Part shown: positions 23,954 to 25,092 of the stretch, piece by piece
How positions within the stretch are numbered: the stretch's first letter is position 1
Layout of the letters: the number at the start of each line of letters is the position of its first letter
From: a virus
Lineage: Duplodnaviria > Heunggongvirae > Uroviricota > Caudoviricetes
DNA: 27,572 nucleotides
Reading direction: 5' to 3' (one strand)
IMG/VR virus record: IMGVR_UViG_2639762873_000006
Span: 1-27,572 of that record
Notes under the pieces: model-generated
Database searches by the model: none
What the model saw: the letters and a program-made list of their open reading frames with translations, nothing else
What the model was told of the DNA's origin: nothing
Translations under genes and position numbers: made by a program

Positions 23954-24139
23954 ATGTATCAATTTATTTACAATTCAGATCATCAAATCATGGGACTGAT
24001 GCTAACTGCCGACGATGTACAAATGGCAGAGGCAGAAGGTTTTTTAATTCTAAAAGCTGGTCATTGTTCGTGGGATGAATTACCACAATTACTAGTACAG
24101 ACAGATGAAGAAGAACAACAGCAGGGAGATAGTGAATAA
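23954..24139 (+). CDS. hypothetical small acidic protein (61 aa)
   Basis: ATG 23954 with GGAG RBS; stop overlaps the next start (TAATG). Confidence 0.4.
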   Translation: MYQFIYNSDHQIMGLMLTADDVQMAEAEGFLILKAGHCSWDELPQLLVQTDEEEQQQGDSE

Positions 24140-24435
24140 TGGCTCAGGGTCTACAATGCTGGAATGCTTCCGGTGTACTGGTAGTAGATTTAGGCGATTA
24201 TAATATGCGTTATATGGGTACTGCGTCATTAGCTATTGCAGCAGGTACTACGACTACATGGAGTGTAGCTTTTAATGGTATGCGTCCGACTGGATGGTTA
24301 GCAATTGCCCGTACTTCTCAATATTGGACGGATTTCTATTGTATTCCTGGCACTAACTCTTTTTCAGTACGTCATATTCCTACTGGATATGTAATGGCAC
24401 AAACTTTAACTTTCGATATATACGCATTTGAATAA
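24139..24435 (+). CDS. hypothetical protein, short paralog of the next gene (shared N-terminal G(L/F)QC(W/Y)N motif)
   Basis: 98 aa; N-terminus MAQGLQCWNASGVLVVD versus MSGFQCYNTAGKLTID in the next ORF. Confidence 0.5.
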   Translation: MAQGLQCWNASGVLVVDLGDYNMRYMGTASLAIAAGTTTTWSVAFNGMRPTGWLAIARTSQYWTDFYCIPGTNSFSVRHIPTGYVMAQTLTFDIYAFE

Positions 24436-24444
24436 GGATTAATA

Positions 24445-25092
24445 ATGTCAGGCTTTCAATGTTATAATACAGCAGGAAAACTAACGATAGATTCAGATAA
24501 TAGAGCTATTGTTATGTCTTCTGTTAAAGCAATGGGTACTTTATCAGATACTGGATACTATACAATCAACTCATCATTTGGCAATGGCTCAACATTGGGC
24601 TATCTTGCTTTAAACTTTTTCCCCAATACTGGTTTACGCTGGTTTCAATTGCAGACTAACGGAAAATATTGTTTTCCGGGTGCGTCGATGTATGAAGCAG
24701 GTAGCGGTAGATTCATGCTTAGTAATAATACTACGGCTCTTACATCCGGTTATCTAGATGTACGTAATAGTGCTGGTACTCTTATTTGGTCGGCGGCAAG
24801 TGCTGCAACAATGCCACGTATACGCGGATTCTTTACTATTCCCGCTGGTCATAACTTAGGTACAGCACTGACACTAACTACACCATTTGCCGATCCGTGG
24901 ATCTGCATTAGTCAGTGTCCTGGCAACTTATCGGATGACGGGGCAACTACTGGTTATAGTGGGATTATGATTAAGAGAAATAGCTCTACGTCATTTACTT
25001 TACAGTACGTTAACAAAAACCAAATGACCTACGCTCAGGCGATGGGGTCAGCACAAGTACAGATTGCTCTAGCTTCATTTACTGGCTATTAA
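24445..25092 (+). CDS. hypothetical protein, long paralog; possible tail-associated adhesin or accessory protein
   Basis: 215 aa, RBS AAGGA; Gly/Ser/Thr/Asn-rich; directly downstream of the tip gene where side fibres usually sit. Confidence 0.5.
   Translation: MSGFQCYNTAGKLTIDSDNRAIVMSSVKAMGTLSDTGYYTINSSFGNGSTLGYLALNFFPNTGLRWFQLQTNGKYCFPGASMYEAGSGRFMLSNNTTALTSGYLDVRNSAGTLIWSAASAATMPRIRGFFTIPAGHNLGTALTLTTPFADPWICISQCPGNLSDDGATTGYSGIMIKRNSSTSFTLQYVNKNQMTYAQAMGSAQVQIALASFTGY

Follow-up and report, generated by a model that had tools for sequence, protein, structure and literature searches.

A pair of small proteins encoded beside the J-like gene of an enterobacterial siphovirus prophage, probably two subunits of the receptor-binding tip of the central tail fibre

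We analysed a stretch of viral DNA of 27,572 nucleotides (IMG/VR record IMGVR_UViG_2639762873_000006; hereafter the window), which is a siphovirus prophage of about 39% GC. Within it we focused on ORF A and ORF B, two small genes that lie downstream of a J-like tail tip gene. We conclude, with a probability of about 0.7, that A and B are two small subunits of a receptor-binding tip on the central tail fibre, with A as the adaptor and B as the receptor-binding protein (RBP). Taken separately, the placement of both proteins at the tail tip of the virion is very probable, and so is the role of B as the RBP. The pair is a diverged new member of a module that was described between 2021 and 2026, and not a new kind of system. 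An earlier note on this DNA had suggested that the two proteins might be receptor-binding or tip-decorating proteins, and this suggestion is supported by the linkage of J, A and B, by the precedent of phage DEV and by the match of the B fold to a solved RBP.

The earlier note had also placed the pair after the tip gene, and the coordinates of A and B downstream of the J-like gene confirm this placement (Table 1). A starts 242 nt past the J stop codon and B starts 9 nt past A. The short acidic ORF between J and A has a pI of 4.05, its stop codon overlaps the A start (TAATG), and its ATG is preceded by GGAGA at a distance of 8 nt. Shine-Dalgarno-like sites are found 6-10 nt 5' of this ORF, of A and of B, and the J, A and B genes have an operon-like arrangement. 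Downstream of B is an ORF of 88 aa that encodes a membrane segment and a coiled coil, and the first clear terminator, which is bidirectional, lies beyond that ORF at 25421..25447. The 61-aa ORF has just 9 protein clusters in a set of 5.8 billion proteins and is missing at most related loci, where A abuts J. We conclude that it is probably co-transcribed with its neighbours and outside the core of the module. Copies of the window at 95-97% identity were found in two of 5426 complete E. coli genomes, one of them adjoining a truncated yegD; E. coli carriers of the prophage include isolate 02B21CPO003B (NZ_CM151386.1) and strain WGI31CT (NZ_CM135810.1). When phage genomes were searched by megablast with the locus and with 25 kb of the window, no match came up. 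The window lineage is a rare enterobacterial prophage that is known only as a prophage.

Table 1. Features of the J-A-B locus, with positions in the window
Feature	Position	Strand	Basis or proposed role
J-like central tail fibre / tip attachment protein, 1100 aa	20595..23897	+	PHROG 31 and Pfam matches
C-terminal hairpin-like end of J, residues 1082-1100	23838..23894	+	Where A and B are proposed to dock
Acidic ORF of 61 aa, separating J from A	23954..24139	+	Lineage-specific
ORF A, 98 aa	24139..24435	+	Proposed tail-tip adaptor: N-terminal docking hairpin and lectin-like beta-sandwich
Conserved N-terminal 27 residues of A (MAQGLQCWNASGVLVVDLGDYNMRYMG)	24139..24219	+	Predicted beta-hairpin
ORF B, 215 aa	24445..25092	+	Proposed tail-tip RBP; homologues carry Pfam PF28254
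N-terminal hairpin motif of B (MSGFQCYNTAGKLTIDS)	24445..24495	+	hhalign against the A family; conservation
Internal second hairpin-like copy in B, residues 101-120 (SGYLDVRNSAGTLIWSAASA)	24745..24804	+	Conservation; weak motif match

The J-like protein matches PHROG 31, 'central tail fiber J', at 5e-53, and its Pfam matches include Phage_Tail_Tip at residues 1026-1080 of 1100 as well as fn3. No extra receptor-binding domain follows its conserved C-terminal fibre end. Over its last 251 aa, J matches the fibre chains of DEV gp56 (9ze4_N, E 5.4e-19), T1 (9l9p_S) and SU10 (7z4b_EA) as far as the C-terminal ends of those chains, the alignment to 9ze4_N running to ...KVFDQAGKLRVHIG, four residues short of the chain C-terminus. 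For the last 151 aa, the best full-length phage matches came nearly all from phages that also bear A and B, and in Rtp, a phage with a different type of RBP, the J end differs too. A J protein that has no receptor domain of its own and that is accompanied by two constant small partners points to a non-covalent tip complex. The end of J also looks like the N-termini of A and B (LQCWNASGVLVVDLG, FQCYNTAGKLTIDSD). When a BLOSUM-softened profile of the J end was run over 8520 sequence windows from the window's proteins, the A N-terminus ranked 3rd and the B N-terminus 34th. With a strict HMM built from the C-terminal 19-mer of J, neither N-terminus was retrieved, and because the likeness appears with the softened profile only, we treat this resemblance between sequences as suggestive.

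The N-terminal motif that the earlier note had recognised is present in A (MAQGLQCWNASGVLVVD) and in B (MSGFQCYNTAGKLTID), with the correction that B reads M.G and not M..G. A BLASTP comparison of A with B gave 7 of 14 identities at a pairwise E of 7e-4 and nothing else notable. Aligning the families by hhalign, with 31 members for A and 47 for B, gave E-values of 3.4e-5 to 4.4e-5 over the first 17-18 columns. A profile search with the motif had been proposed as a check, and with a profile of A N-termini searched against the 106 six-frame window ORFs of at least 40 aa, the B N-terminus was the best non-self match (E 0.0045). The motif is also the best-conserved part of each family. For A, residues 1-27 have a column identity of 0.87 and residues 28-98 one of 0.59, with 11 invariant columns that all fall inside residues 4-27, and in B it is 0.81 over residues 1-17. 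Because BLASTP, hhalign, the profile search and conservation agree, we conclude that the motif shared by A and B is real and selected for.

Past residue 18 or so, neither BLASTP nor hhalign found any similarity between A and B. The description of the two as a paralogous pair is therefore only partly right, in that an N-terminal hairpin motif of about 18 residues is common to both and the rest is without demonstrable similarity. A common origin of the two beta-sandwich bodies is possible. Conserved anchors joined to variable bodies are what would be expected of a docking element and an exposed surface, and the shared hairpin is probably a docking element. The variable segments of B lie at about residues 18-100, 131-150 and 174-205. 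Both proteins had also been called rich in Gly, Ser, Thr and Asn. This holds for B, in which these residues make up 39.5%, and hardly for A, at 31.6% against 28.9% in the other proteins of the window. A feature that stands out more is that A and B are both nearly without Lys and Glu.

B carries a second, internal hairpin-like motif (Table 1) with a column identity of 0.79-0.85. Its match to the N-terminal motif of B is weak (HMM E 0.09; hhalign E 0.0048 over 14 columns). The 223-aa protein of DEV type has an equivalent internal motif, and Rtp44 has one as judged by eye. Comparing one half of B with the other by hhalign reached those 14 columns only (E 0.0048), and comparing A with the C-terminal half of B by hhalign found nothing. 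An internal duplication in B, or a reading of A as half of B, is thus unproven by sequence. A 313-aa member of the A family, P0239, has two A-like hairpin modules, which may be a sign that larger tip proteins can consist of repeated A-like units; sequence comparison by hhalign gave no confirmation of such a build. Other candidates were rejected: the multi-stretch matches of P0196 and P0215 to the A family came from repetitive or low-complexity sequences and not from relatives, and P0208 was a frameshift artefact that fused a J end to A.

Both proteins are confidently predicted to be all-beta, with a pLDDT of 89.5 for A and of 89.3 for B (pTM 0.83). The least confident part of both models is the two-strand N-terminal hairpin (pLDDT 66-76). 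In A, its strands lie at residues 6-8 and 14-17 and the hairpin scores 71-76, below the body, and in B the N-terminal motif scores 66 compared with more than 90 for the core. Low confidence in the hairpin of monomer models is compatible with an element that depends on a partner, and proves nothing. Against a viral structure library, the A fold matches many stand-alone phage proteins of about 95-135 aa, a few of which are annotated as tail fibre or H-type lectin proteins. The question of whether the fold is that of a lectin or beta-sandwich, which had been raised as a check, can be answered positively for A, which is predicted to form a lectin-like beta-sandwich. The predicted fold of B resembles a solved RBP, that of Oekolampad (PDB 9RPT). 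Sequence searches of the PDB with family profiles found no relatives for A and nothing at E below 0.6 for B.

At the level of families, B aligns over residues 1-214 with all 230 profile positions of phrog_4524 (1.1e-59), and A over residues 1-98 with all 108 profile positions of phrog_7961 (5.5e-24); both families are annotated 'unknown function'. Scans of A, B and the 61-aa ORF with NCBIfam and with a local copy of Pfam that lacks the PF28254 model gave no match. A precomputed match to PF28254.1 is present in all 120 B homologues among the matches listed, down to 43% identity. PGAP labels a near-identical E. coli copy of B, from a region of 97% DNA identity, as a 'DUF8377 family phage-derived protein', and we assume that PF28254 and DUF8377 are one family. 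The A family has 118 representatives, as clusters at 50% identity, among 1.84 billion proteins, and nearly all of these are stand-alone proteins of 90-108 aa.

We compared 88 loci, consisting of 80 from IMG/VR, seven annotated records (six phage and one E. coli prophage) and the window. A adjoins B in 87 of these loci, and the order is almost always A followed by B on the same strand. In 79 of the 88 B-bearing loci, ...LRVRMGL[W/F] is the C-terminus of an adjacent ORF that is 400 aa or longer. This ending is common to the J of the window, to those of HK639 and IsaakIselin, and to the tail proteins of the Acinetobacter phages Presley and CP14, which are 2133-2223 aa long. A tblastn search detected B in 59 phage records and A in another search in 52, and the two sets overlap to a large extent. 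The carriers include HK639-like temperate coliphages and siphoviruses, Drexlerviridae of E. coli, Klebsiella and Cronobacter, and a Pantoea phage, and they extend to the N4-like Acinetobacter phage Presley, a podovirus, and to Acinetobacter Saclayvirus phages including CP14. The triad of J, A and B is kept in strictly lytic phages too. A fusion of J to A in the Cronobacter phages ENT39118 and SG01 was considered and rejected, A being an unannotated ORF between J and B in these genomes; the apparent fusion matches fell under features annotated 'tail protein'. The genome of the Cronobacter phages CRES7 and CRES9, at 49,065 bp, is near in size to that of SG01, which bears A and B.

A precedent for a tip of this kind comes from the Pseudomonas phage DEV (Schitoviridae, Litunavirus), in which the J-like gp56, gp55 and gp54 are co-transcribed, are all essential and form the receptor-binding fibre (PMC12892993). 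Suppressor mutations in DEV map to gp54, which places LptD recognition there, and an AlphaFold3 model with an ipTM of 0.8, docked into low-resolution cryo-EM density, has one gp55 as adaptor and one gp54 as RBP on the tip of a gp56 trimer (PMC12892993). In DL64, a close relative from the same genus, a J-like gene of 437 aa is followed by genes for a 99-aa protein that starts MSYGFRFYDADGNVTIDS and a 223-aa protein that starts MTYGIKLTNENSNICIDE and has the internal motif GWGMQVFDADGNGVFD. The gene order, the protein sizes (99 and 223 aa compared with 98 and 215 aa) and the placement of the N-terminal and internal motifs are like those of the window, and the C-terminal region of gp56 is homologous to the window's J. 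Unlike the window's phage, DEV is a podovirus with a lateral fibre, a different host and LptD as its receptor, and a J of its type ends in ...LRVHIG, a close variant of the ...LRVRMGLW described here. In hhalign comparisons with the DEV-type families, the signals were weak and centred on the hairpin: E 4.9e-4 and a probability of 32% for A with the gp55 type, E 0.021 and 2% for B with the gp54 type, and E 6.7e-5 and 64% for B with the gp55 type. Beyond the hairpin region, hhalign showed no homology of A or B to gp55 or gp54. We conclude that the two modules are architecturally equivalent and probably related, and we do not claim orthology because the profile signal is weak and centred on the hairpin.

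Other known systems resemble the pair in part. The LptD-binding RBPs, namely the Oekolampad RBP and Rtp44, differ from B in being about 310 aa long and in having no detectable sequence similarity to it. They also lack an A-like partner gene, and their J proteins have a different C-terminal ending. What the Oekolampad RBP shares with B is the fold only. In T5, a separate monomeric RBP, pb5, is attached through non-covalent contacts to the tip of a trimeric central fibre, pb4, and the T5-like Pectobacterium phage My1 has a pb4 that is similar to the C-terminal part of the window's J, at 53% identity and 68% query coverage. T5 pb5, of 640 aa, is unlike the pair in being a single protein without an adaptor, and we saw no sequence or fold relation between it and A or B; T5 also has an exclusion lipoprotein, Llp. 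Lambda Stf/Tfa and the proteins Cor, Llp and Rtp45 share with A and B a genomic position after the tip gene, but no similarity in sequence, fold or targeting signal.

The closest comparison for the receptor is with phages that depend on YncD. In small siphoviruses, loci beside gpJ match the terminal receptor specificity, and the YncD dependence of IsaakIselin (Bas10) has been shown with complementation (Maffei et al., PMC8594841). IME347 and JohannLBurckhardt (Bas11) are listed as YncD phages. A 2026 preprint defined a YncD-associated protein family at the gpJ locus by a criterion of more than 30% identity at about full coverage, and placed the HK639-like phage Eeyore with YncD by computation (bioRxiv 10.64898/2026.04.02.716166). 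The window's A and B sit directly beside the gpJ homologue, as in the YncD-associated locus. By that criterion B would belong to the family, provided that its homologue is the gene which the preprint, with a numbering of its own, means by the RBP. B is 45% identical to Eeyore B and, over 100% of the length in each case, 37.8% identical to its counterpart in IME347, 36.9% in IsaakIselin and 33.2% in JohannLBurckhardt. The phages with a YncD locus, which are Drexlerviridae and HK639-like phages, carry true homologues of both proteins, at 33-46% full-length identity for B (E 1e-31 to 5e-57) and 31-38% for A, and have the same C-terminal ending of J. The Tempevirinae differ from the window in two respects: their A and B are convergent with J, and they have a third gene with a signal peptide, probably for exclusion, which the window lacks. 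The window for its part differs from them in the 61-aa acidic ORF that separates J and A. At the IsaakIselin locus, the A homologue has 101 aa and the B homologue 217 aa, and the third gene, which encodes a signal peptide, is plausibly an exclusion factor.

Going by these sequence relationships, the receptor of the window's phage might be YncD or a related TonB-dependent transporter, to which we give about one chance in three. The identity of B to the copies in YncD phages is only 33-46%, and the receptor may for this reason differ from YncD. If the Cronobacter Drexlerviridae CRES7 and CRES9 carry A and B, the report that LPS alone triggers ejection in them (PMC12090712) would count against our reading of the pair as a whole.

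We propose the following model for how the tip could work. The J trimer would supply the fibre, which would end in a conserved beta-hairpin and have no receptor-binding domain of its own. A and B would each anchor to the C-terminal end of J by way of the conserved N-terminal hairpin and, by analogy with DEV, one A and one B would be present per J trimer (3:1:1). A would act as adaptor or stabiliser of this asymmetric junction, which is the division of labour that we infer between A and B. The variable surface of B would then engage an outer-membrane beta-barrel protein of the enterobacterial host, a role that the TonB-dependent transporter YncD or a relative could fill, and binding of B to the receptor would commit the tail to DNA ejection. 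A more far-reaching version of this model seems doubtful to us. It holds that the hairpin is a general plug that mimics the last beta-hairpin of J and makes the tip asymmetric, that A is a lectin-like second sensor, for example of an LPS core sugar, so that sugar and protein are read together, and that B, Rtp44 and P0239 arose by tandem duplication of an A-like unit of hairpin plus sandwich.

A different division of labour, one in which A is not passive, would follow if A and B were independent, alternative RBPs that each sit on the J tip and bind different receptors. The word 'alternative' had been used for them in the earlier note. That A and B have the same N-terminal anchor motif and that the A body is lectin-like and variable (column identity 0.59) would both agree with such an arrangement. 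In DEV, gp55 was modelled near the LptD loops and may add a receptor contact (PMC12892993), and a genetic screen with IsaakIselin scored the LPS heptose gene hldE as well. Dependence on the LPS core can, however, reflect an indirect effect on the assembly of outer-membrane proteins, and in DEV both genes are essential and suppressors arose in gp54 only (PMC12892993). Above all, A and B are practically never apart among the 88 loci, and such near-constant pairing is better explained by obligate partners than by alternatives. Together with DEV (PMC12892993), this pairing speaks for two subunits of one complex, and we consider independent RBPs unlikely. A could also act before the virion is complete, as a non-structural chaperone that assists the assembly of B or of the J tip and is absent from the mature virion. 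It is small and lies immediately upstream of B, and in the DEV study the mass-spectrometric evidence for gp55 in virions was called uncertain (PMC12892993). Nevertheless, the fold of A is one seen in lectin-like domains exposed at fibre tips, A and B have matching N-terminal anchors, and the counterpart of A in LIT1 was reported in virions. For these reasons we consider a chaperone role quite improbable.

The position next to J brings in two further explanations, both of which the earlier note had entertained. In other phages this position can be occupied by genes for exclusion proteins, and A, B or both could be prophage-expressed proteins for superinfection exclusion or lysogenic conversion, like Cor, Llp and Rtp45. 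The known exclusion proteins of the J locus are small secreted lipoproteins, and Rtp45 has a lipobox, but the N-termini of A (MAQGLQCWNASG...) and B (MSGFQCYNTAG...) have no signal peptide or other hydrophobic leader, no lipobox and no membrane helix. The third gene of IsaakIselin, which unlike A and B has a signal peptide, fits such a role better. The pair is moreover kept in strictly lytic phages and linked there to the J C-terminus, and the B fold matches a solved RBP. The lack of an export signal and the conservation in lytic phages lead us to rule out exclusion, for which we see hardly any chance. The same position is also the one point in favour of side-tail-fibre components, or of a fibre with its assembly factor as in lambda Stf/Tfa. 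Neither A nor B matches a fibre or assembly family of Pfam, PHROGs or NCBIfam. Both are too globular and too small for such a role, and their models lack trimeric fibre features. The window has a separate long fibre gene, of 1144 aa, at 12047..15481, and HK639 has the pair plus a separate downstream tail fibre gene. We rule out side fibres, as no less improbable than exclusion, on the grounds of size, fold and the separate long fibre gene, and return to A and B as adaptor and RBP of one receptor-binding tip.

Taken together, these results turn two hypothetical proteins, one of which had a DUF label only, into a testable annotation as a host-recognition tail tip. They link the gpJ-adjacent receptor loci of T1-like coliphages, the HK639-like temperate phages and the DEV fibre of N4-like phages, three lines of research that are mostly considered apart from each other. 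The architecture that recurs across them consists of a J that ends in ...LRVRMGLW or a close variant, an adaptor of about 100 aa and an RBP of about 215 aa, with the same N-terminal hairpin as anchor. If the hairpin is the docking element, it would mark a boundary to respect when receptor-binding modules are swapped for phage re-targeting.

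Downstream of the tip module, which consists of the J-like central tail fibre protein (J), the proposed adaptor (A) and the proposed receptor-binding protein (B), nearly all loci of the window's prophage lineage carry a gene for an 88-aa protein after B. This gene almost always adjoins a lysozyme gene of about 150 codons, and it does so in either orientation of the lysozyme gene. Because the 88-aa protein has matches to DUF2730 and to a holin family, both of them weak, we conclude that it is probably a lysis-cassette partner and lies outside the tip module. The ORF that follows the lysis genes is named 'GIY-YIG nuclease family protein' by PGAP.

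Features around the tip module, in the tail region and at the IsaakIselin locus (window coordinates unless stated)
Feature	Coordinates	Strand	Remarks
1144-aa protein	12047..15481	+	residues 1-144 match PHROG 158 'major tail protein', the rest tail-fibre families
152-aa tail tube gene	15538..15996		just downstream of the 1144-aa gene; PHROG 158 match
Stem-loop	23906..23940	+	GGGGAAG...CUUCCCC, then U-tract; directly 3' of J stop
61-aa acidic ORF	23954..24139	+	pI 4.05; between J and A; stop overlaps A start
88-aa protein	25159..25425	+	downstream of B; N-terminal membrane segment, coiled coil
Bidirectional terminator	25421..25447		between convergent 88-aa and lysozyme genes
Lysozyme gene, ~150 aa	25453..25905	-	convergent with 88-aa gene
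GIY-YIG or homing-endonuclease-like ORF	25946..26383	+	PHROG 7363, 8e-13; just past lysis genes
bas10_0024, 110 aa	6729..7061 of L002 (IsaakIselin)		third gene of YncD-type locus

The gap between J and A holds two features in the window. The stem-loop has a free energy of -15.2 kcal/mol, but compared with shuffled sequences its z is only -1.6; it may act as a partial terminator and so keep expression of the downstream tip genes below that of J. The 61-aa ORF is absent from most related loci and occurs in only 9 protein clusters, among which the named sources are E. coli or Enterobacter, and no family match was found for it. At loci L051 and L018, and also at L026 and L037, the same gap contains small ORFs that repeat the C-terminal hairpin of J (for example, ...HIEIYDSEGKLRVRMNKD and ...NNNTIKVYDNNNKLRISMNK). 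These ORFs look like scars of module swapping, left behind by recombination at the conserved 3' end of J.

In the E. coli NZ_CM151386.1 prophage copy (L003), the annotation splits J (16792..20098) into two ORFs, 953 aa and 157 aa long, which suggests that J contains a frameshift or a sequencing error; therefore this copy, otherwise 97% identical to the window, may be defective. The YncD-type locus of coliphage IsaakIselin differs from the window in having bas10_0024, which lacks a counterpart there. Its product has a clear signal peptide, MKKIMLAMALVAPLNAMA; superinfection exclusion through action on YncD is a candidate role for this protein.

Upstream, the N-terminal residues of the 1144-aa protein and the 152-aa tail tube protein share PHROG 158. 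The longer protein looks like a fusion of a tail-tube domain and a long fibre, encoded ahead of the tube gene, and it is probably the source of the lateral fibres of the window phage.
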